DNA from: a virus
IMG/VR virus record: IMGVR_UViG_3300045988_043313
Location: 1-45,977 of that record
Direction: 5' to 3' (one strand)
Length of the DNA: 45,977 nucleotides
Shown here: positions 828 through 44,942 of the stretch, piece by piece
How the letters are laid out: the number at the start of each line of letters is the position of its first letter
Numbering within the stretch: position 1 is the first letter of the stretch
Notes under the pieces: generated by a model
The model's database searches: none
Seen by the model: the letters and a program-made list of their open reading frames with translations, nothing else
What the model was told of the DNA's origin: nothing
Made by a program: the position numbers and the translations under genes

Positions 828-1607
828 ATGGATGGAAATTATAGCTTAGCAGATATTGCCGCTGCTACTGGAAACGGTAGAAATAATGACGGCATGTTTG
901 GTGGAGATGGTAGCTGGTGGATTATTGTTTTATTCATTTTTGCTTTCTTCGGATGGGGAAACAACGGCTGGGGCAATAATGGAAACGGCGGTGGATATGC
1001 AGCCACAGCAGCTACTCAGGCAGACATCCAGAGAGGATTTGACAATTCCGCTGTGATTAGCAAACTTGACGGAATCAATAACGGTCTCTGTGACGGATTC
1101 TATTCAATGAACAATGGTATGCTTACCGGATTCAACGGAATCAACACAAACATCATGCAGACTGGTTTCGGCATTCAGCAGGCTATTAACGCTGACACTG
1201 TAGCAAATATGCAGAATACCAATGCACTCCAGGCACAGCTTGCGAACTGTTGCTGCGAAACCAGAGAAGCAATTCAGGGCGTAAACTACAATATGGCGCA
1301 GAACACCTGTGCATTACAGAACACCATGAACAGCAACACAAGAGATATCATTGACAGCCAGAACGCTGGGACAAGAGCCATTCTCGACTATCTTTGCAAT
1401 GAAAAGATTTCTAACCTGCAGGCTGAAAATAACGACCTCAGACGTGCTGCTTCTCAGGACCGCCAGAGCGCACTTCTCACAACTGCAATGGCTTCACAGA
1501 CACAGCAGCTCATTAATGCGATTAATCCGGCACCGATTCCGGCATATCAGGTTCCTAATCCGAACACATTTTACGGATGCGGATGCAACACTGGATGTAA
1601 TTGCTGA
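828..1607 (+). CDS. Hypothetical membrane-anchored protein with a Gly/Asn-rich region, Asn/Gln-rich body, CCC motif and Cys-rich tail
   Basis: AAAGGAG RBS. Hydrophobic segment WWIIVLFIFAFFGW flanked by GWGNNGWGNNGNGGG. Internal ANCCCETRE. C-terminus YGCGCNTGCNC. Confidence 0.75.
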   Translation: MDGNYSLADIAAATGNGRNNDGMFGGDGSWWIIVLFIFAFFGWGNNGWGNNGNGGGYAATAATQADIQRGFDNSAVISKLDGINNGLCDGFYSMNNGMLTGFNGINTNIMQTGFGIQQAINADTVANMQNTNALQAQLANCCCETREAIQGVNYNMAQNTCALQNTMNSNTRDIIDSQNAGTRAILDYLCNEKISNLQAENNDLRRAASQDRQSALLTTAMASQTQQLINAINPAPIPAYQVPNPNTFYGCGCNTGCNC

Positions 1608-2150: not shown

Positions 2151-2705
2151 ATGAGAGACATTAAGGATTTATGTGCAAGAATTGAAGACGAACTGTCCAA
2201 AATTGCTGACAGTGGACTGACTACCGGAAATCTGGAAATGACATACAAACTGATTGATATGTACAAAGATATCAAGAATACGTATTACTGGGACAAGAAA
2301 GTGGAATATTACAACACTGTCCTTGATGAGATGCGTAGCGGCTACAATGACGATTACAGCGAACGTGGAAGAAAGCGTGACAGCATGGGGAGATACAGCG
2401 CAAATGACGGCAGAATGATGCCAGATTACGACCGGGGCAGTTCTTATGCCAGACGTGGTGAGCATTATGTTAGAGGGCATTACAGCCGTTCTGACGGACG
2501 AGATGCTTATGACGACTACATGACGCAGAAACAAAGCTATCGTTCCGGCAAGTCTGAGGACTGCAAAAGAAAGATGCTCGCCGCTCTAGAAGAACATCTG
2601 GACGAACTCACTACAGAAATGAGCGATATGTCCAAGGACGCAGAGTGCCGGGAGGAACGTGATCTTGTCAAAAGATACGTGGAAAAACTCCGTGATATGC
2701 TCTAA
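2151..2705 (+). CDS. Hypothetical protein with helical ends and an Arg/Asp/Tyr/Ser-rich low-complexity centre
   Basis: AGGAGG at 2138-2143 lies 7 nt before ATG 2151. No recognisable domain. Confidence 0.65.
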   Translation: MRDIKDLCARIEDELSKIADSGLTTGNLEMTYKLIDMYKDIKNTYYWDKKVEYYNTVLDEMRSGYNDDYSERGRKRDSMGRYSANDGRMMPDYDRGSSYARRGEHYVRGHYSRSDGRDAYDDYMTQKQSYRSGKSEDCKRKMLAALEEHLDELTTEMSDMSKDAECREERDLVKRYVEKLRDML

Positions 2706-2709
2706 TTGG

Positions 2710-2754
2710 CTAAAACATGTACCACAACTTTTTGAAGGTTCTGTGATACAATAT
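2710..2754 (+). promoter_or_regulatory. Conserved box + extended -10 promoter, copy 1
   Basis: CTAAAACATGTACCACAACTTTT, then 11 nt, then TGATACAATAT (TG-n-TACAAT). The same architecture and spacing occur at 37968 and 43670. Confidence 0.65.
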
Positions 2755-2759
2755 ATTCG

Positions 2760-3072
2760 TAGGGAAGATTTGTAAGCAGAAATGCTTGACATAGACATTT
2801 TTATTGCTTTCCTCCTTTCTTTAAGCAGATGCGTGTCCTTAATAGAAACAGGTTCGGGGTGGAATCTGGAGGTTGAAAAGCGGATGCAATTTCCGACACG
2901 TATCATTGCCGCTAGTGCATGGCGGAATATCTCCTTGTGAGCATATAACTGAACAGTGAAATCCAACCCGTGCAGAGGTGCGCGACCGTATAGGCGGTGT
3001 TGACGTAGCCCGAACGTCCCGTGTTTAGGCATAGCACGTAAAATACCTTGCTAACCCGGGAATCCGGGTTAA
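2760..3072 (+). ncRNA. Candidate structured non-coding RNA / long structured leader
   Basis: No credible ORF or RBS. GAAA-tetraloop hairpin 2774-2787. Long-range helix 2806-2815 with 2868-2881. Hairpins at 2909-2925, 2985-2998, 3002-3018, 3020-3038 and a strong one at 3053-3070. Lies downstream of the promoter box and abuts a tRNA. Confidence 0.4.
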
Positions 3073-3144
3073 GGCAGGATGGAGAAGTGGAATCTCACAA
3101 GGTTCATACCCTTGAGAACGGCGGTTCGAATCCGTCTCCTGCAA
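3073..3144 (+). tRNA. tRNA with CAU anticodon (Met/fMet or Ile2 type), no encoded CCA
   Basis: Full hand-folded cloverleaf. Acceptor 3073-3079/3137-3143 with a G1.A72 mismatch. U8. D stem GAGA/TCTC with a GG loop. Anticodon stem CAAGG/CCTTG, loop TTCATAC. 5-nt variable loop. T arm GGCGG-TTCGAAT-CCGTC. Confidence 0.75.
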
Positions 3145-3262
3145 TTAATTTGGTCGGAATTACGCTGTCTGTATACAGGCGGTCTATGATTCGGCTGAAT
3201 TTATCTCATGAGAAAAGGTTATTGCTTATCCTGCTATCTGGTGTCCAGACCGAAAAGCATAA

Positions 3263-3336
3263 TGGAATGTAGCTCAGTTGGGAGAGCGGAGGACGCATAG
3301 TCCTTGACGTCGGTGGTTCGAGTCCACCCTTTCCGA
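3263..3336 (+). tRNA. Non-canonical tRNA-like gene, CAU anticodon
   Basis: D arm GCTC-AGTTGGGA-GAGC and T arm GGTGG-TTCGAGT-CCACC are canonical. The acceptor has U1.G72 and a U.U mismatch, the anticodon loop is CGCATAG (G at position 33), and the variable loop is 6 nt. Confidence 0.45.
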
Positions 3337-3414
3337 TTACCCTGCCAGTGGTCTAACTGGCTTAATCCACTTACCTGCGGCGGCAGGTCAATAAACACGA
3401 CCAGGAGGATGTAT

Positions 3415-4047
3415 ATGCAGAAACTTATTGACACATTAAAATCATTTGGAATTGAAATCCCGGAGGACAAACAGGCAGATGTGAAAAAGGCGCTCTCAGA
3501 ACATTATAAGAACGCCAAAGAAGTAGCGAAAACCCTGTCAAAAGTCGAGGGAGAACGCGATGACTGGAAAGAACGTGCTGAAACAGCAGAGGAGACCTTA
3601 AAAGGTTTTGACGGTATCGACCCGGCGAACATTCAGACAGAGCTTGCTAGATGGAAGAAAAAAGCTGAGGATGCAGAGAAAGAATTCAATGCAAAAATTT
3701 ACGACCGTGATTTCTCAGATGCTCTGAAAGCGGCACTCGATGATGTTAAGTTTTCCAGCGAAGCTGCAAAGAAATCAGTTATGGCAGACATTAAAGAAGC
3801 AGGATTGAAGCTGAAAGACGGTAAAATCCTTGGACTGAACGACCTGATTGAGCAGATGAAACAGTCTGACGCATCTGCTTTCGTGGACGAATCTCAGCAG
3901 CAGGCTCAGCAGAACCAGGCAAGATTTACCACTCACGTTGGACAGCAGCAGACACCGGGAAACATGACTAAAAAAGATATCGAAGCAATCAAAGACCCGT
4001 CCGAGAGACAGGCCGCAATCGCTCAGAATATCCAGTTATTCCAGTGA
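3415..4047 (+). CDS. Scaffolding protein (GP20-like minor structural protein)
   Basis: AGGAGG at 3403-3408 lies 6 nt before ATG 3415. Highly charged, helical, coiled-coil sequence directly upstream of the capsid gene. Confidence 0.75.
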   Translation: MQKLIDTLKSFGIEIPEDKQADVKKALSEHYKNAKEVAKTLSKVEGERDDWKERAETAEETLKGFDGIDPANIQTELARWKKKAEDAEKEFNAKIYDRDFSDALKAALDDVKFSSEAAKKSVMADIKEAGLKLKDGKILGLNDLIEQMKQSDASAFVDESQQQAQQNQARFTTHVGQQQTPGNMTKKDIEAIKDPSERQAAIAQNIQLFQ

Positions 4048-4123: not shown

Positions 4124-5293
4124 ATGCCAGCAAAAACAAATCTTATTATGACTAATGATATTCATGTCACAGCACGTGAGATTGACTTTGTTACCAGATT
4201 CGAAAGAAACTGGCAGCACTTACGTGATATTCTGGGTATCATGAGACCTATCAAAAAGCAGCCGGGTGCTGTACTCAAGTCCAAATACGCAGAGGGTACT
4301 TTACAGAGCGGAAAAGTTGGTGAGGGTGAGGAAATCCCTTACAGCAAATTCGTTGTAAAAGAAAAGGACTATGCGGAAATGACTATCGAGAAGTACGCAA
4401 AGGCTGTGTCTATCGAAGCAATCAAGGATCACGGTTACGAGAACGCTGTTCAGATGACCGATGATGAATTCCTTTTCCAGCTTCAGACTGATGTTACCGG
4501 CAGATTCTATGACTATCTGAAAACCGGTACACTTACTTCCACAGAAACAACATTCCAGATGGCTCTGGCAATGGCTAAGGGTCGAGTAGAAAACAAATTC
4601 AAGCAGATGCACAGAAATGTGACTGGTGTTGTTGGATTTGTGAATATTCTGGACGTATATGAATATCTCGGAGCAGCTGAGATTACTATTCAGAACCAGT
4701 TCGGATTCCAGTATATGAAGGATTTTATGGGATTCAACACAATCTTTTTACTGTCTGACAGCGAAATCCCGAGAGGACAGGTTATTGCTACTCCTGTTGA
4801 GAACATTGTCCTGTACTATGTAGACCCGAACGAATCTGACTTCGCAAGAGCAGGACTTGTATACACCGTATCTGGTGAGACAAACCTGATCGGATTCCAC
4901 ACTCAGGGCAACTACCACACAGCAGTGTCCGAAGCGTTTGCGGTTATGGGACTGACTCTTTTTGCAGAATACATTGACGCAATCGCAGTAATTACCATTG
5001 ATGAAACACCAACACTTGGTACCCTGACAGTAACATCTGCAGCTGGAACAGCAACTGGTGATACGAAAATCACTGTAAATCCGGCTAAGGAAAATGCTAA
5101 CAACGTATATAAATACAAAGTTGCAACAGACGCAGTAACTGTTGGATATGGACAGAATCTCAGAAACTGGAGTACTTGGGACGGAAAATCTGATATCACA
5201 GCGGCAACCGGACAGAAGATCACAGTGGTTGAGTGTGACGGAACATACAAAGCGCTGAATGCCGGAAGTGCAAGCGTAACAGCAAAATCATAA
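4124..5293 (+). CDS. Major capsid protein with C-terminal Ig-like (Big_2-like) domain
   Basis: 389 aa, positioned after the scaffold gene. The C-terminal ~95 aa (TLTVTSAAGTATGDTKITV...) look like a bacterial Ig-like domain. Confidence 0.85.
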   Translation: MPAKTNLIMTNDIHVTAREIDFVTRFERNWQHLRDILGIMRPIKKQPGAVLKSKYAEGTLQSGKVGEGEEIPYSKFVVKEKDYAEMTIEKYAKAVSIEAIKDHGYENAVQMTDDEFLFQLQTDVTGRFYDYLKTGTLTSTETTFQMALAMAKGRVENKFKQMHRNVTGVVGFVNILDVYEYLGAAEITIQNQFGFQYMKDFMGFNTIFLLSDSEIPRGQVIATPVENIVLYYVDPNESDFARAGLVYTVSGETNLIGFHTQGNYHTAVSEAFAVMGLTLFAEYIDAIAVITIDETPTLGTLTVTSAAGTATGDTKITVNPAKENANNVYKYKVATDAVTVGYGQNLRNWSTWDGKSDITAATGQKITVVECDGTYKALNAGSASVTAKS

Positions 5294-5808: not shown

Positions 5809-6642
5809 ATGGCTAATTATGGCGTGCCGTATAAGGGCAGTAAAAATAAAATTGCAAAGCAAATTATTGATTTCTTACCTTCCGGCGGTACGTTATATGA
5901 TTTATTCGCAGGCGGTTGCGCAATCACACATTGCGCTATGGAATCTGGAAAATATGACAGGTATATCGTTAATGATATTGAACCAGGAATTACTCAACTT
6001 TTCATTGATGCAGTTAACGGGAAATATGCAAATGAAAAAAGATGGATTAGCCGAGAAGATTTTTTTAAATTAAAAGAATCAGATCCATATGTAAAATATT
6101 GTTGGAGTTTTGGAAACAATGGACGCGATTATCTTTATTCAAAAGCAATAGAACCATTAAAAAAACATCTTCACAATATATTTTTTGCAGAAAATTTGCA
6201 GGAAGCAAGGCTTGAATGGAAAGCGTTTATTAGAGATTTTTGCACAAGCAAACAAAGTCTGCAAAGTCTGCAAAGTTTGCAAAGTCTGCAAAGTTTGGAA
6301 AGGCTGCAAAGTTTGCAAAGTCTGCAAAGTTTGGAAAGGCTGGAAAGGCTTTGTACGGACTACGGAAATATAAGAATAGAGTCAGATGCTGTAATTTACT
6401 GTGATATTCCATATAAAAATACAAACAGATATGGAGATGAAAAAGCAGAATTTGACTATAACTCTTTTTATGACTGGGCTTGTTCACAGAACGTTCCTGT
6501 ATTTATATCGGAGTACGATATGCCAGAAGATAGATTTGAATGCGTACTTGAAATGAAAAAGCAATCTTGCATGGCTGCTACAAAAACGCTTTCAGTAACT
6601 GAGAAATTATATATTCCTAGGAAGAAAGGAAAGATAAAATGA
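5809..6642 (+). CDS. DNA N6-adenine methyltransferase (Dam-like, D12 class)
   Basis: N-terminal YKGSKNK, SAM motif DLFAGG, and catalytic DIPY (a DPPY variant) near residue 200. AT-rich compared with its neighbours. Confidence 0.8.
   Translation: MANYGVPYKGSKNKIAKQIIDFLPSGGTLYDLFAGGCAITHCAMESGKYDRYIVNDIEPGITQLFIDAVNGKYANEKRWISREDFFKLKESDPYVKYCWSFGNNGRDYLYSKAIEPLKKHLHNIFFAENLQEARLEWKAFIRDFCTSKQSLQSLQSLQSLQSLERLQSLQSLQSLERLERLCTDYGNIRIESDAVIYCDIPYKNTNRYGDEKAEFDYNSFYDWACSQNVPVFISEYDMPEDRFECVLEMKKQSCMAATKTLSVTEKLYIPRKKGKIK
6253..6351 (+). repeat. In-frame 9-bp tandem repeat tract (11 units) inside the methyltransferase gene
   Basis: Units are CAAAGTCTG/CAAAGTTTG (QSL) and GAAAGGCTG (ERL). They are in frame with the CDS and lie between the SAM motif and DIPY. 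Confidence 0.95.
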
Positions 6643-7411: not shown

Positions 7412-7903
7412 ATGAGCAAGATTCATCATTTCAAAGGATTCTCCGTAGTTGATGGATATATGAAAATTAAACTGAATATGGATAGATTCTCCAGACAGTA
7501 TCAAGAAGCTCAGTATCTCCTTGATGGAATGGTCATGGACAGTATGGTGCCGTTTATGCCGATGATTACAGGGGACTTTATTAATAAGACAAGGGCAAGA
7601 AGCTCCTCTATGCAAGGCACAGGCTTTGTTTGTGCGGCGGCAGAACCATATGGACGTTTTCTTTATTTTGGAAAAACCATGGTAGACCCCGCAACAGGTA
7701 GTACATGGGCAAGACACGATGCGGAAAAGGTTCTTGTGAGCCAGTATTCCGGTAAAACGAATGCAAAAGAGAATCTTCAATATACAAAATCACCGCATAC
7801 TCAGGCGCAAGCTGAATGGTTTGATGCCGCAAAACGACAATACGGCAGCACATGGATTCGCAAAGTAAAAGCACAGGCAGGAGGTGGCAGACATGGCAGA
7901 TAA
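7412..7903 (+). CDS. Head-tail joining protein (minor capsid family 2-like)
   Basis: Called from position and size. Tightly packed with its neighbours. Confidence 0.45.
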   Translation: MSKIHHFKGFSVVDGYMKIKLNMDRFSRQYQEAQYLLDGMVMDSMVPFMPMITGDFINKTRARSSSMQGTGFVCAAAEPYGRFLYFGKTMVDPATGSTWARHDAEKVLVSQYSGKTNAKENLQYTKSPHTQAQAEWFDAAKRQYGSTWIRKVKAQAGGGRHGR

Positions 7904-8393
7904 ACCTATCGGAGTAGATGCAACCGGATATGACATTCTGACAGACGCCATGAAAGCACTTCTAAACCAGTATCCGGGACTACACGACAATGAAATAATC
8001 AAATTCGAGGAACTTGGCAAAGAATCGGGAATTGCGTTCTCAGCAGACAACGGGGCGCTGATCTATTCAGAAAAAAAAGATATTTGTGGCGTAATGCATC
8101 AGGTATGCCAGTATCCATTTTATGTGGTATACCGAACAGCATCCGACAAGGAGAGGCAGAAATTATCTGTTCAGAAATTTTTGGATAATCTCGGTAAATG
8201 GATATGCAGAGAACCAGTTGTCATAAATGGCACTGAGACACGTTTAAATGCGTTTCCAGAGCTTTCGCAAGGGCGAGTGATAAAACGTATAACCCGTGGA
8301 AACTCCTACGGTACAGATCCGCAGGAGAACGGCGTACAGGACTGGTTATTGCCATTGTCAGTACGCTACGAAAATACTTATGAAGTAGTATAA
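7893..8393 (+). CDS. Head-tail joining / tail terminator-like protein (minor capsid family 3-like)
   Basis: AGGAGG at 7879-7884 lies 8 nt before ATG 7893. Last gene before the major tail gene. Confidence 0.45.
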   Translation: MADKPIGVDATGYDILTDAMKALLNQYPGLHDNEIIKFEELGKESGIAFSADNGALIYSEKKDICGVMHQVCQYPFYVVYRTASDKERQKLSVQKFLDNLGKWICREPVVINGTETRLNAFPELSQGRVIKRITRGNSYGTDPQENGVQDWLLPLSVRYENTYEVV

Positions 8394-8395
8394 AT

Positions 8396-8479
8396 ATCGT
8401 CGGAGGTGGTAGATTTCGTTGCAACCACGCACCCTATGGGTTAAAAGAGATGCAGGAGCCGCAACGCCTGCCCGACGAT
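8396..8479 (+). promoter_or_regulatory. Structured intergenic element upstream of the major tail gene
   Basis: Closing helix ATCGTCGG (8396-8403) with CCGACGAT (8472-8479). Inner helix CGTTGC (8417-8422) with GCAACG (8461-8466). Hairpin ACCC-TAT-GGGT at 8431-8441. No T-run follows. Confidence 0.4.
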
Positions 8480-8563
8480 TAAATAGTAATAACCGGCTAT
8501 CAATTGGAGGTAGTCGCTAACTTACACAGCCTTTTAAAAGTTATAGGCAGAAAGGACATTTCT

Positions 8564-9064
8564 ATGGCAGTTACAGGAAAAATTGACCGTAAATATATGG
8601 CTCATTATATTGATGCAGGTTCCCTCTGCGAAGGGCTGACACCGAAATATGAGCGTCTTGGAAAGGATCTGGAAGAGTACAACATCGAACTCAACCCGGA
8701 TACCGAAACATCTAAAAACATTCTTGGAGAATCCACATTTAAGCATAACGGCTATGAGGTATCTTCTGATGCCGATCCATTTTATGCAGATACCACTTCT
8801 GACCTATTCACGGCGTTACAGAAGATTGTAGACGGACGCCTCAAAGACGATAACCTCAAGACAAAAGCAGTTGAAGTCCATCTCTGGACAGAAGCCACAG
8901 CAGGCAAGTATGAAGCATATCAGCAGGATTGCTACGTTGTGCCGACATCCTACGGTGGAGACACATCTGGCTATCAGATTCCATTTACTGTCAACTATGT
9001 TGGCGAACGTGTAAAAGGAAAATTTGATATCAGTTCCGGTACATTCACAGCTGACAGTGAATAA
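8564..9064 (+). CDS. Major tail protein
   Basis: ATG 8564 preceded by AAAGGA. Size, position before the chaperone and tape-measure genes, and sequence style are typical of siphovirus tail tube proteins. Confidence 0.75.
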   Translation: MAVTGKIDRKYMAHYIDAGSLCEGLTPKYERLGKDLEEYNIELNPDTETSKNILGESTFKHNGYEVSSDADPFYADTTSDLFTALQKIVDGRLKDDNLKTKAVEVHLWTEATAGKYEAYQQDCYVVPTSYGGDTSGYQIPFTVNYVGERVKGKFDISSGTFTADSE

Positions 9065-39912: not shown

Positions 39913-41358
39913 ATGGGACTTATAACAACACTAAAAAGGTGGTTTAACATGATATTCAAAAAACAAGCCGAAGAGGACTTTAATATCCAGGCGGCAGAGT
40001 TCCCAGAGATGGAATCGTTGATTAATAAATGTGCAAACATATATCGAGGCGTTCCATACTGGTTAGATGATAAAAATAACATCAAGACGATTAATTTTGC
40101 TAAATCCGTCTGCTCCGAGACTGCCAGACTTGCAACATTGGCGATCGGTATTCAGATTGACGGCTCTGCAAGGGCGGCATGGTTACAGGAGCAGATCGAT
40201 AAAGTATATTTCCAGATACGTCACTGGGTAGAATACGGCTGTGCTTATGGAACGGTATTTATCAAACCAAACGGTGAGAGCCTTGACGTATTCACTCCGG
40301 CAGATGTGATGATTGTGGATTACGATAATCAGGAAATCAAAGGGATTATATTTAAGGACTCTTATACTGTTGGTAGAAAATACTACACAAGGCTCGAATA
40401 TCACAGGTTTGTTGAGACAACAGTGGACGGAGTGACAACCTATCCGTATTATGTTTCTAACAGAGCCTATGTATCAAAATCTCCTCAAAGCATCGGAGAC
40501 AAGATTGACCTTAAACAGACAAAGTGGGCTGACCTAATGGCAGATACGCCGCCGATACTCAAGGCAAACGGCGAGAAACTGGACGGACCTTTGTACGGAG
40601 TACTGCGGACACCACAGGCGAATAACGTGGATATCAGTACACCGCTTGGATTGCCGATATTTGCAGAAGCAATTGAGGAATTAAAGGATTTAGACATTGC
40701 ATACAGCCGAAACGCAAAAGAAATCCTTGATTCTAAGCGGACTGTTCTGGCAGATGACAGATTGTTGATGCCGAGTGGTTCACCTGTCTCCGCTATGACA
40801 CCACAGGCAATGGAACATAGATGCTTAGAAATGAGTTTACCAGATTATGTGAAAAACGTATTCGGACAGGACGAGAAAGAGTTCTATCAAGAAATCAACC
40901 CGATTCTAAACACAGATACCCGTATAAGTGGCATAAACGCCATTTTAAGCCAGTTAGGGTACAAGATTGGATTCTCCAACGGATACTTCGTTTTTAACGA
41001 ATCCAGCGGCATTCAGACAGCTACAGGAGTAGAAGCGGAACAGCAGAGGACAGTGCAGTTCATCAAGGATGTAAGGGATAAGTTAGAGTCTTGCCTAGAT
41101 GAAGTTATTTACGCATTGAACGTTTACGCTGATCTGTACGGGCTTGCACCGGTTGGGGCTTATGAAGTCAATTATGATTTCGGAGACATCCTATATGTGC
41201 GTGAAAACGACCGTGCAAGATGGTGGCAGTATGTGACCACTGGCAAAGTTCCGGCATGGTTGTATTTCGTGAAATTTGAAGGAATGACCGAGGAAGAAGC
41301 GAAAGCAATGGTCAAAGAAGCTCAACCAGACGAACCAACATTATTCGGAGAGGAGTAA
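39913..41358 (+). CDS. Portal protein (SPP1 gp6-like)
   Basis: 481 aa, follows terL, and the sequence style is typical of the SPP1 portal family. Confidence 0.88.
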   Translation: MGLITTLKRWFNMIFKKQAEEDFNIQAAEFPEMESLINKCANIYRGVPYWLDDKNNIKTINFAKSVCSETARLATLAIGIQIDGSARAAWLQEQIDKVYFQIRHWVEYGCAYGTVFIKPNGESLDVFTPADVMIVDYDNQEIKGIIFKDSYTVGRKYYTRLEYHRFVETTVDGVTTYPYYVSNRAYVSKSPQSIGDKIDLKQTKWADLMADTPPILKANGEKLDGPLYGVLRTPQANNVDISTPLGLPIFAEAIEELKDLDIAYSRNAKEILDSKRTVLADDRLLMPSGSPVSAMTPQAMEHRCLEMSLPDYVKNVFGQDEKEFYQEINPILNTDTRISGINAILSQLGYKIGFSNGYFVFNESSGIQTATGVEAEQQRTVQFIKDVRDKLESCLDEVIYALNVYADLYGLAPVGAYEVNYDFGDILYVRENDRARWWQYVTTGKVPAWLYFVKFEGMTEEEAKAMVKEAQPDEPTLFGEE

Positions 41359-43669: not shown

Positions 43670-43714
43670 CTAAAACATGTACCACGACTTTTGACGAAAG
43701 AGGTGATATAGTAT
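43670..43714 (+). promoter_or_regulatory. Conserved box + extended -10, copy 3 (overlaps the RBS/ATG of the MuF-like gene)
   Basis: CTAAAACATGTACCACGACTTTT, then 11 nt, then TGATATAGTAT. The final AT are the first two bases of ATG 43713. Confidence 0.5.
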
Positions 43715-44942
43715 GCTTAGTCCTGAATATTTACGGCAAATTACAGAGGGCAGTGAACAGATAGCAGAAGAACTGCATCAGTACATCATCTCTGAGATTG
43801 TGTCGAGAATGATAACAAGAATTGGAAGAGGCGAAGATTATATCCTGACCAATGCCGATGCGTGGAGAATCAGAACACTACAGGAATCTGGTGAACTGCT
43901 AGAGGATATTCTGGCGGAACTATCCAAATACACCAAACGCGAACAGCAGGAACTTCTTGAAGCGTTTGAAGATGCCGGAATCACTGCTCTCGATTATGAT
44001 GATAAGATATACAAGGCGGCAGGATTAAGCCCTGTACCGCTCGAACAGTCCCCAACTATGATAAGACTCATGGAGCGAAATATGCTTGCGACTATGGGAG
44101 AGTGGAAGAATTTCACAAGAACAACTGCGAGTGCCGCTCAGAGACTCTATATCGAACAATGTGACCTTGCATATAACCATGTGATGACTGGAGCAGTTGG
44201 CTATACGCAAGCCATCAAAGAGGCGGTTAATAACGTTGTGAGTGATGGTGTTACGGTCACATATCCATCTGGCAGAAAAGACACGATCGAAACAGCAGTC
44301 GCACGTTCTGTCAGAACTGGCGTGGCTCAGGCTACTGGAGATATATCCCTCAAACGCATGGAAGAGATGGGCTGGGATTTAGTTCTGGTCAGTGCTCACA
44401 TGGGAGCCAGAACAGGTGACGGTGGTGAGAACCCGGGAAATCACGCATGGTGGCAAGGAAAGATATACTCTCGTTCTGGCAAGAGCAAGAAATTTCCACC
44501 GTTCTCATTGACCGGATATGGAACGGCGAGTGGATTGTCAGGGGTCAACTGTCGGCATAGTTTTGGAGCCAGTGATGGAGAATTTAATCCCTATACAGAA
44601 CTATCAGCACAGGATAAAGCCGACAAAGGCAAACAGTACGAAAAAGAACAGCGGCAACGTGCTTATGAGCGAAGAATCCGCAAAACGAAGAGAGAAGTCC
44701 TTGGAATGCAAACGGCGGTTGACAACTGCAAGGACGAACAGACGAGATTTGCACTCCAGCAAGACCTTGACCGGAAGTCTTATCTTTTGCAGAAGCAAAA
44801 TGCTGCATACAAGGCTTACTGCAAGCAGAACGACCTGAGGGAGCTACAAGACCGACTCATGATTGCTAAGTGGAACCGCCAGAATGCCGCAAAAGCCAGA
44901 GGAGCGGCAAAGAGATATAAAACAGCAAAGGGGATTGACTGA
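43713..44942 (+). CDS. Minor head protein (Mu F / SPP1 gp7-like)
   Basis: 409 aa in the usual post-portal position, with a basic coiled-coil C-terminus. Confidence 0.8.
   Translation: MLSPEYLRQITEGSEQIAEELHQYIISEIVSRMITRIGRGEDYILTNADAWRIRTLQESGELLEDILAELSKYTKREQQELLEAFEDAGITALDYDDKIYKAAGLSPVPLEQSPTMIRLMERNMLATMGEWKNFTRTTASAAQRLYIEQCDLAYNHVMTGAVGYTQAIKEAVNNVVSDGVTVTYPSGRKDTIETAVARSVRTGVAQATGDISLKRMEEMGWDLVLVSAHMGARTGDGGENPGNHAWWQGKIYSRSGKSKKFPPFSLTGYGTASGLSGVNCRHSFGASDGEFNPYTELSAQDKADKGKQYEKEQRQRAYERRIRKTKREVLGMQTAVDNCKDEQTRFALQQDLDRKSYLLQKQNAAYKAYCKQNDLRELQDRLMIAKWNRQNAAKARGAAKRYKTAKGID

Follow-up and report, generated by a model that had tools for sequence, protein, structure and literature searches.

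GOLLD and ROOL are large ornate RNAs with a length of several hundred nucleotides (nt). According to the main text of a 2017 paper reporting 224 motifs, both occur in a phage or prophage context near transfer RNA (tRNA) genes, and the name RAGATH-21 is absent from that main text (PMC5737381). In Caudoviricetes of the gut, phage tRNA genes are linked to theta ribozymes, which resemble the hepatitis delta virus (HDV) ribozyme and for which a role in the maturation of tRNAs and transcripts has been proposed (PMC10879173). RAGATH-21 (RF03097) is listed in Rfam under the type 'Gene; sRNA', that is, as a small RNA (sRNA). Judging from its accession, the family presumably belongs to the Rfam 14.1 batch of Weinberg et al. 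2017. No paper naming RAGATH-21 was found in a literature search that, for the 2017 motif paper, was limited to main texts.

In this study, we analyzed a gap of 709 bases (positions 2706-3414) in the virus record IMGVR_UViG_3300045988_043313 of IMG/VR, whose whole stretch of 45,977 nt is called the window. The gap extends from the stop codon of an open reading frame (ORF; 2145-2705, phrog_28802, function unknown) to the ATG of a head scaffolding protein gene at 3415, and it carries a RAGATH-21 RNA and two tRNA genes. A sequence-only reading had described it as a 709-bp non-coding island with two embedded tRNA-like modules and had suggested a large structured RNA transcribed with the late genes. 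The island was confirmed, as no conserved ORF was found in the gap and the reading frames differ among the relatives; both modules proved to be tRNA genes (3073-3144 and 3263-3336), called by ARAGORN and above the Rfam threshold. The gap is ordinary in kind, being made of known RNA genes, and is a mosaic of small modules and not one RNA of 300-650 nt. From sequence comparison, we give somewhat better than even odds (a probability of about 0.55) to the reading that the scaffold and major capsid genes of a temperate Lachnospiraceae phage have, in this island, their promoter-proximal untranslated leader, modular in build and processed by ribonuclease (RNase) P and RNase Z. The modules follow one another in the order promoter-like extended -10 element, 5' hairpin, pyrimidine tract with CCUCCUUUC, RAGATH-21, hairpin with a second CCUCC-like motif, pre-tRNA leader motif, initiator-like tRNA(CAU), spacer, atypical tRNA(CAU), two-hairpin motif of the 5' untranslated region (5'UTR) and ribosome-binding site of the scaffold gene. 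Single-sequence folding energies of the three non-tRNA segments were ordinary (z = -1.6, -1.5 and -1.5), so the claims on structure rest on comparison with relatives and not on thermodynamics.

RAGATH-21 upstream of the scaffold gene

The covariance-model scan with Rfam matched RAGATH-21 and the two tRNAs. RAGATH-21 was placed at 2828-2904 (+) over model positions 1-76 of 76, with 86.9 bits against a cut-off of 70.3 (E=9e-16). This 77-nt RNA is a four-way junction of cloverleaf-like topology, in which helix P1 (2828-2837/2895-2904) closes three hairpins; the junction CUUAAUAGAAA (2838-2848) is followed by P2 (2849-2855/2862-2868), the GAG of the core (2869-2871), P3 (2872-2874/2879-2881, GAAA loop) and P4 (2882-2884/2892-2894, UGCAAUU loop), all on the plus strand. 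Nine well-supported pairs of P1 are stacked with the three pairs of P4, with the 7-nt U...A loop as cap, beside the 3' strand. Among 92 distinct homologues, 97.4% of cells were paired, none of 500 shuffles reached the score and slid controls were far below. P1 and P2 covary, with changes on both sides in 9/10 and 4/4 pairs, respectively, and P3 and P4 are nearly invariant. The invariant sequences CCUUAA.AGAAA and GAGG.UGAAAA.CGG.UGCAAUU.CCG are all present (2836-2848 and 2869-2895), and 14 diverse homologues tested were all above the Rfam cut-off. Membership is secure because the match is full-length and above the cut-off, the helices covary and 14/14 homologues pass; RAGATH-21 here joins a known orphan family, and both tRNAs are ordinary in kind. 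Behind P1, a variable hairpin (2909-2925, +) differs in stem sequence yet pairs in every family having it. Together with those at 2774-2787, 3053-3070 and 3374-3389, it belongs to the hairpins of the sequence-only reading that are real, with compensated changes in relatives.

A leader peptide starting from GGAGG-N11-AUG inside RAGATH-21 was considered and rejected: conservation is limited to the first four codons, which coincide with the RNA core, the stops vary, and in L014 (loci are numbered with the prefix L) the frame runs through the tRNA. In Dulem virus 35 (L223 1844-1975; PP511522.1 10501-10632), a hypothetical protein of 43 amino acids is annotated in GenBank exactly over a RAGATH-21 of 83.9 bits. 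This ORF is probably spurious, which is a lesson for annotation.

An exact-pattern scan with the RAGATH-21 core returned at least 120 viral contigs and 14 bacterial contigs, and the locus counts that follow are counts among the matches listed. Most of the bacterial contigs are of Lachnospiraceae, among them those of the isolates Enterocloster hominis CLA-SR-H021 (NZ_JBBMFM010000014) and Blautia sp. MSJ-19 (NZ_JAHLQA010000034), and these loci are therefore taken to be prophages of that family. A scaffold homologue lies on the same strand 71-1230 nt (median 319) downstream of RAGATH-21 in 132/140 loci, and the remaining 8 are truncated. Between RAGATH-21 and the scaffold 5'UTR stand zero to three tRNA genes, always in the same orientation. 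ARAGORN placed tRNAs downstream on the same strand in 95/126 loci, with none upstream or antisense, and Rfam adds further degenerate tRNAs; L131, Dulem virus 35 and loci of the L045/L128 type are without any tRNA. Among near-identical phages the flanks are constant while the anticodons vary (CAU, UAU, GUA, GUU, UUG, UGU, UAC, UAA and others), and the space between RAGATH-21 and the start codon can take up tRNA insertions of 70-650 nt. In minimal versions, RAGATH-21 stands only about 71-115 nt before the start codon. A tRNA begins 1 nt (L129) or 4 nt (L014) after the end of RAGATH-21, so that a cut by RNase P there would define its 3' end. The sequence 'A|UU', typically 'AUUACC', is found behind tRNAs and, in most families, behind P1. 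The 140 relatives give the orphan RAGATH-21, whose biochemistry looks sophisticated, a precise setting, at the head of a swappable tRNA array in the PF06810 leader of Lachnospiraceae phages; this setting narrows the hypotheses, which are testable in cultured hosts carrying such prophages, such as the two isolates named above.

The 80 closest relatives of the scaffold protein were selected by protein, not by RNA. RAGATH-21 was found in 46 of them (45 by exact pattern and L221 by the Rfam model), and the other 34 had no RAGATH-21 pattern within 1.2 kilobases upstream. All 13 loci inspected among these 34 carry a 49-nt tRNA-like element between the same flanks, with both CCUCC motifs retained. 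The element has a 7-bp acceptor stem, a D-like arm and a canonical T arm (CAGGUUCGAAUCCUG) and is without an anticodon arm; the tRNA model covers it at full length with 18.6 bits (E=0.21). In a MAFFT alignment, P4 of RAGATH-21 (CGGAUGCAAUUUCCG) falls on this T arm. The element was seen at L146 853-901 and also in L144, L148, L153, L167, L178, L181, L191, L209 and L212, and its P1 covaries (GGUGCGCACG/CGUGCGUAU versus GGUACACACG/CGUGUGUAU).

In 20 more distant scaffold loci, the slot before the scaffold gene is occupied by a tRNA in nine, by GP20-b in eight and by nothing in three, and the nine tRNAs sit 60-160 nt upstream of the scaffold start. Among the GenBank phages, the occupant is GP20-b in RG-TP1, a tRNA in two contigs and RAGATH-21 in Dulem virus 35. 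A terminator-like hairpin lies directly before the pre-scaffold tRNA in L224, L291, L295 and L297; in most of the distant tRNA loci, the tRNA is followed by 'UUNCCCA', a hairpin, UUAAUAAA and a Shine-Dalgarno (SD) sequence. A search for hammerhead or twister ribozymes in the slot of 24 more distant scaffold loci found none, only tRNAs and GP20-b.

Modules flanking RAGATH-21

A promoter-like extended -10 element, TGaTACAAT, was read from the sequence at 2744-2752 (+), with the box AAACATGTACCACAACTTTTT (2713-2733) before it, and a putative transcription start lies near 2760. Most families have an element similar to a -10 (often TGnTAnAAT), together with a TGTGGGGACAA/ACATGTACCACAA box, at 55-100 nt upstream of P1, and a hairpin and then a U/C-rich tract come behind it; in other families, a terminator-like hairpin with a U run stands in its place. 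A 29-mer search of the window for the promoter box, allowing up to 3 mismatches, matched only its own copy, and the idea of a repeated late promoter was dropped. The 5' leader hairpin AAGCA-GAAA-UGCUU (2774-2787, +) was recognized from sequence and from compensated changes in relatives, its counterparts being AAGUGG...CCACUU, UGUAAC-GAAA-GUUACA and AAACC-GAAA-GGUUU. In six families (L014, L045, L048, L074, L086 and L130), the product of the upstream gene is a small protein that resembles a zinc ribbon (...CPxCNNKTR...VFCPKCKN...), and the same six have the direct repeats GCCAGAC GCCAGAC GCAGAGCC and a terminator-like hairpin just before CCUCC.

The pyrimidine-rich tract (2794-2827, +) contains the anti-SD-like CCUCCUUUC (2811-2819), which we take to match the 3' end of the 16S ribosomal RNA (CCUCCUUUCU). 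Of 24 flank families, 21 have CCUCC, usually as part of this longer sequence, at 3-15 nt upstream of P1, and 23 do so when a 4-mer is accepted, the expectation being 0.8% per family; the plus strand of the whole window has 14 CCTCC and 51 GGAGG. A second, weaker anti-SD-like UCUCCUUG is found at 2930-2937, where many relatives have (CA)CCUCCUUG, and exact CCUCC occurs within 120 nt downstream of P1 in only 6/24 families. Since there is no CCUCC before the tRNAs of the distant scaffold loci, the motif travels with RAGATH-21 and not with the slot. A 10-bp helix (2806-2815/2868-2881) had been drawn here earlier; it sets CCUCC (2811-2815) against the GGAGG (2868-2872) of the RAGATH-21 core, and its CCUCC half is conserved (21/24 families), whereas its GCUUU/AAAGC half is not and competes with P3. 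Two scans of the viral collection for covariation of CCUCC:GGAGG found only one variant of GAGG, which is uncompensated, and single CCUCC variants that are mostly uncompensated. Covariation cannot decide between a CCUCC:GGAGG pseudoknot and a free seed because both sides are invariant. The linked CCUCC and the invariant junction imply a further specific interaction, which may be a pseudoknot with the RNA's own GGAGG or pairing to SD sequences. A minus-strand gene read from GAAAGGAGG, the complement of CCUCCUUUC, was rejected, as the distance to an ATG varies between 2 and 12 nt, the window and L002 do not share a reading frame, and an ATG is absent from loci of the L014 type.

Behind the second motif, a lineage-specific spacer (2938-3019, +) with small local hairpins at 2985-2998 and 3002-3018 is shared by the window and the L001, L024, L133 and L134 types, and loci of the L002, L004 and L005 types have other sequence there. 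These two hairpins and that at 3237-3249 are present in the spacers of some sub-lineages only, and their stems are invariant. The pre-tRNA leader motif (3020-3072, +) consists of hairpin A (3020-3038, loop ..AGGCAUA), (A/U)AAA..UUGCUAAC and hairpin B (3054-3069). It ends 3 nt before the tRNA in the window and 2-4 nt before the first tRNA across loci, and 75 distinct copies in several families were found in the loci examined (e.g. L006 1273-1341). In relatives, the CCCGG/CCGGG stem of hairpin B is replaced by CCGGC/GCCGG, and its loops vary. No Rfam family matched the motif.

The first tRNA(CAU) (3073-3144, +) was called by ARAGORN and scored 54.4 bits with the Rfam tRNA model (RF00005, cut-off 29). 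Bacterial initiator tRNAs have no Watson-Crick pair 1:72, an A11:U24 pair and three consecutive G:C pairs at 29-31:39-41. The tRNA of the window has a G1xA72 mismatch, A11:U24 and G30G31:C39C40, so that its anticodon stem has two G:C pairs (30:40 and 31:39), with A:U at 29:41. In 17 homologues, position 1 is G, C or A while position 72 is always A, and thus the mismatch itself is conserved. Given the established identity elements of bacterial initiators, we read the gene as an initiator-type tRNA. The spacer between the tRNAs (3145-3262, +) contains a conserved hairpin in the minimum-energy fold (3164-3183; counterparts in relatives GUCUG-CGUG-CAGGU and AUCUG-UUUA-CAGAU), then GGUCUAUG.

The second, atypical tRNA(CAU) (3263-3336, +) was also called by ARAGORN and reached 41.1 bits with the Rfam tRNA model (cut-off 29). 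It has a U1-G72 wobble, a U6xU67 mismatch, G33 in place of U33 and a pairable C32-G38, the loop being C-G-C-A-U-A-G; it thus lacks the U33 and the open 7-nt anticodon loop of a canonical decoding tRNA. A constant tRNA body (UGGAAUGUAGCUCAG...CAUUCCGA) was seen with many anticodon arms (CAU, UAU, GUU, UGU, UAC, GCA, GUA and CUG), namely at 3263-3336 in the window, at L002 1392-1465 and L003 1401-1468, and near 1050-1125 in L181, L191, L209 and L212; some of these arms are without U33 or have a broken stem. This looks like a cassette-style diversification of the anticodon arm. Other tRNA-like units (GUGGAAUGUACGUUAAUGGUAGACUGACAGGG-CCGCU-CCCUGG...) have an 'anticodon' hairpin whose loop has only 5 nt and differs in sequence; although unable to decode, these units are conserved within the array (L001 1426-1497 and equivalent places in L015, L107, L113, L144, L153 and L167).

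The scaffold 5'UTR (3337-3414, +) was read from the sequence as UUACC, hairpin 1 (3344-3361, GGUYUA loop), AAUCCA (3364-3369), hairpin 2 (3374-3387), UCAAUAAA and then the SD sequence GGAGG (3404-3408). The two hairpins covary: in 15 diverse 5'UTRs, 98.7% of cells were paired, 6/10 pairs were changed on both sides and none of 500 shuffles reached the score. No Rfam family matches this two-hairpin motif, which occupies the position that GP20-b has in other phages. Models for transfer-messenger RNA, group I introns and riboswitches had no match in the whole window at the Rfam thresholds or on 2600-3500 at E<=10, and ARAGORN found no transfer-messenger RNA; the permissive scan of 2600-3500 added only chance-level matches (E=0.41-6.4).

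Possible roles of the leader

The leader can be viewed as a processing cassette because the occupants of the slot, which are tRNAs of any identity, non-decoding units and a truncated element, are substrates of RNase P and RNase Z. In such a cassette, the host enzymes would cut the primary transcript at the tRNAs and would release a leader RNA of about 140 nt or longer, made of the 5' hairpin, CCUCC and RAGATH-21, then the tRNAs, and finally a scaffold-capsid messenger RNA (mRNA) that would begin from 'UUACC', just ahead of two protective hairpins. These cuts would make the level and stability of the mRNA for the most-needed head proteins independent of the RNA upstream, with a bearing on how the high stoichiometry of scaffold and capsid is controlled at the RNA level in phages. 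A weak part of this account concerns RAGATH-21 itself, which would most likely act as a tRNA-like, nuclease-defined structural module or a stable small RNA and not as a classical cis riboswitch, as suggested by the cloverleaf topology, the alignment of P4 with the T arm, the 'A|UU' trailer, the replacement by a tRNA-like element in sister phages and the plain tRNA in the slot of distant ones.

Several observations weigh against this account. The Rfam tRNA model had no match over 2828-2904 at E<=10, and ARAGORN in relaxed and mitochondrial modes gave no sense-strand call for RAGATH-21 and only spurious antisense ones; since tRNA finders miss RAGATH-21, the analogy with tRNA is limited to topology and position. 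Real tRNAs usually accompany RAGATH-21, which would be redundant if processing were its sole role, and its extreme conservation, with one variant of GAGG, points to a function more specific than that of a nuclease substrate. The tRNA-like replacement belongs to a single lineage of close relatives and may have arisen by deletion and not be a functional equivalent. The sigma-70 scan called no promoter at the gap because there is no -35; of the conserved promoter box proposed earlier, the conservation among relatives and the extended -10 stand, but as a promoter it is a consensus-like match only.

A cis-regulatory role is the first alternative to be weighed. In its classical form, a cis riboswitch is unlikely, since the distance to the start codon shifts by hundreds of bases between near-identical phages and since tRNA processing would sever RAGATH-21 from the mRNA. 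No riboswitch-type expression platform at a conserved distance was found, as the distance is 71-1230 nt and no terminator-like site follows the element, and there is no conserved alternative pairing because P1 varies while the 5'UTR is constant. In a wider form, RAGATH-21 with its 5' CCUCC would be a riboswitch, a protein-binding element or a processive antiterminator that acts on transcription independently of distance. This would fit an RNA that, among the matches listed, is always in sense orientation upstream of the same gene family and is close to a promoter-like element; its compact junction with invariant nucleotides is typical of RNAs binding ligands or proteins, GP20-b (Rfam type 'Cis-reg') directly adjoins it in some phages, and an RNA that modifies the polymerase would tolerate inserted tRNAs. 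However, no convincing stem with a U run was found downstream of RAGATH-21 in 2400-3700, the terminator-like hairpin of several families lies upstream and not downstream of it, and the intervening tRNAs would again separate it from the mRNA. Support for antitermination was also sought in the terminator-like sites of the late operon, which are at chance (16 versus 12.4 in shuffles), and was dropped. We consider the wider form doubtful, with a real but minor chance of being right.

Alternatively, the leader RNA may act in trans as an sRNA whose single-stranded copies of CCUCC(UUUC) would pair with SD sequences and so repress or redirect translation in late infection, with RAGATH-21 as a structured, stabilizing or protein-binding body. 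The leader resembles the C-rich-seed sRNAs of Firmicutes in its build, with a 5' hairpin followed by the seed and then by a structured 3' domain. The likeness of CCUCCUUUC to the 16S 3' terminus, the fixed distance of the motif from P1 in 21/24 families, the C to U changes at both copies in L134, with G-U pairing still possible, and the Rfam type of RAGATH-21 are in line with this. Yet a bare CCUCC seed would be without target specificity, the second copy is present in 6/24 families only, and CCUCC could equally pair with the invariant internal GGAGG. We therefore hold a trans-acting sRNA to be unlikely.

A slightly smaller chance still is given to a related proposal, in which RAGATH-21 with its 5' CCUCC(UUUC) would be a tRNA-derived RNA of cloverleaf topology that has taken the place of a tRNA at the front of the scaffold-capsid transcription unit, is released by processing of the RNase P and RNase Z type and serves in late translation as an anti-SD mimic of the 16S 3' end. 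If true, the phage would encode a mimic that acts on translation initiation or on factors recognizing the 16S 3' end.

Improbable, too, is a role of RAGATH-21 as a self-cleaving ribozyme, or as a processing element akin to one, that cuts the late transcript before the tRNAs and the scaffold gene. As stated in a passage of one paper, the name of the family records its discovery close to genes with which twister and hammerhead ribozymes are associated (PMC13346280); gut phages use theta ribozymes beside tRNAs (PMC10879173), the processing of polycistronic RNA is a proposed role of bacterial ribozymes (PMC6765202), and a small junction with invariant nucleotides would suit a catalyst. Against this, no report of RAGATH-21 cleavage was found in the literature searched, Rfam lists the family as an sRNA and not as a ribozyme, the slot of the 24 more distant loci had neither hammerhead nor twister, and RNase P at the adjacent tRNA already cuts.

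Finally, one large ornate RNA over most of 2760-3414, of the GOLLD or ROOL kind or of a new class, can be dismissed with near certainty despite the long gap, the many local hairpins, the adjoining tRNAs and the Firmicutes phage background, since GOLLD and ROOL had no match at the gathering threshold and none at E<=10 on 2600-3500, folding energies are ordinary, tRNA cassettes and spacers are gained, lost or swapped between constant flanks in near-identical phages, minimal versions have RAGATH-21 only about 71-115 nt before the start codon and RAGATH-21 itself is swapped for a tRNA-like element, a modularity that is incompatible with a single unit; what stands of the large RNA proposed with the late genes is a conserved structured RNA next to tRNAs and in the direction of those genes, which is the 77-nt RAGATH-21 and not a product of 300-650 nt.

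Phage setting and comparison with described systems

The window is from a human-gut phage, and its near matches among GenBank phage records are only unannotated faecal contigs. The head scaffolding protein gene (3415..4047, +) belongs to PF06810, formerly Phage_GP20 (81.8 bits), and is followed by the major head protein gene (4124-5293, +); the PHROG matches of the scaffold and major head genes are phrog_194 and phrog_544. The portal and minor head protein genes (39913-41358 and 43713-44942) stand at the opposite end of the window. In a circular or permuted genome, they would come before the accessory genes upstream of the gap, and the gap would then lie inside the late morphogenesis region. 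In the accessory block upstream of the leader, 828-1607 (+) encodes a protein of 259 amino acids (phrog_16490, function unknown) with a very high content of Gly, Asn and Cys and with the C-terminus CGCNTGCNC. Another ORF (5809-6642, +; 277 amino acids) carries a run of short protein repeats QSLQSLQSLQSLERLQSLQSLQSLERLERL, and its DNA therefore has tandem repeats of a 9-nt type, the length of which might vary. A skipping-rope RNA (RF02924) was matched in the late operon at 8396-8479 (+), between the ORFs 7884-8393 and 8504-9064, with 59.9 bits against a cut-off of 36.7. According to the main text of the 2017 paper, skipping-rope, an orphan motif of that set, usually has a terminator behind it and showed no self-cleavage (PMC5737381).

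The locus shares with GOLLD and ROOL a phage or prophage context and nearby tRNA genes, and differs from them in its 77 nt, in the lack of a model match and in having no large conserved unit. Theta ribozymes are reported to follow tRNAs directly and to process the 3' trailers of these tRNAs. RAGATH-21 likewise is a small structured RNA physically linked to phage tRNA genes, but it is upstream, heads the array and has a different fold, catalysis being putative only; HDV-like models had no match in the window at the Rfam threshold or on 2600-3500 at E<=10.

GP20-b (RF03003, Rfam type Cis-reg) belongs to the leader of the same scaffold gene family and, in Ruminococcus phage RG-TP1 as in many contigs of gut phages, directly precedes the scaffold start. 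Its model had no match in the window, where the different two-hairpin 5'UTR motif is found instead. GP20-b does not stand in for RAGATH-21, as the two are only a few nt apart in L045, L127, L128 and L141 (5 nt in the first three).

The punctuation of transcripts by tRNAs is known from mitochondrial tRNAs and from MALAT1-mascRNA. The leader resembles these in that tRNAs or tRNA-like units stand between functional RNA segments, whose ends RNase P and RNase Z would set, and in that degenerate, non-decoding units are kept in the slot; it differs in that cleavage is only predicted for this phage and RAGATH-21 is missed by tRNA models. With RAGATH-21 as defined in Rfam, the RNA of the window shares the full-length match, the four helices, the invariant junction CCUUAAnAGAAA and GAGGuUGAAAAgCGGaUGCAAUUuCCG and the context of Clostridia phages and prophages, and the core is without any difference. 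Four features are outside the 76-nt model, appear not to be captured by it and were not found described in the literature searched: the linked 5' CCUCC(UUUC) extension, the fixed position in the PF06810 leader, the array of tRNA cassettes behind RAGATH-21 and its replacement by a tRNA-like element.

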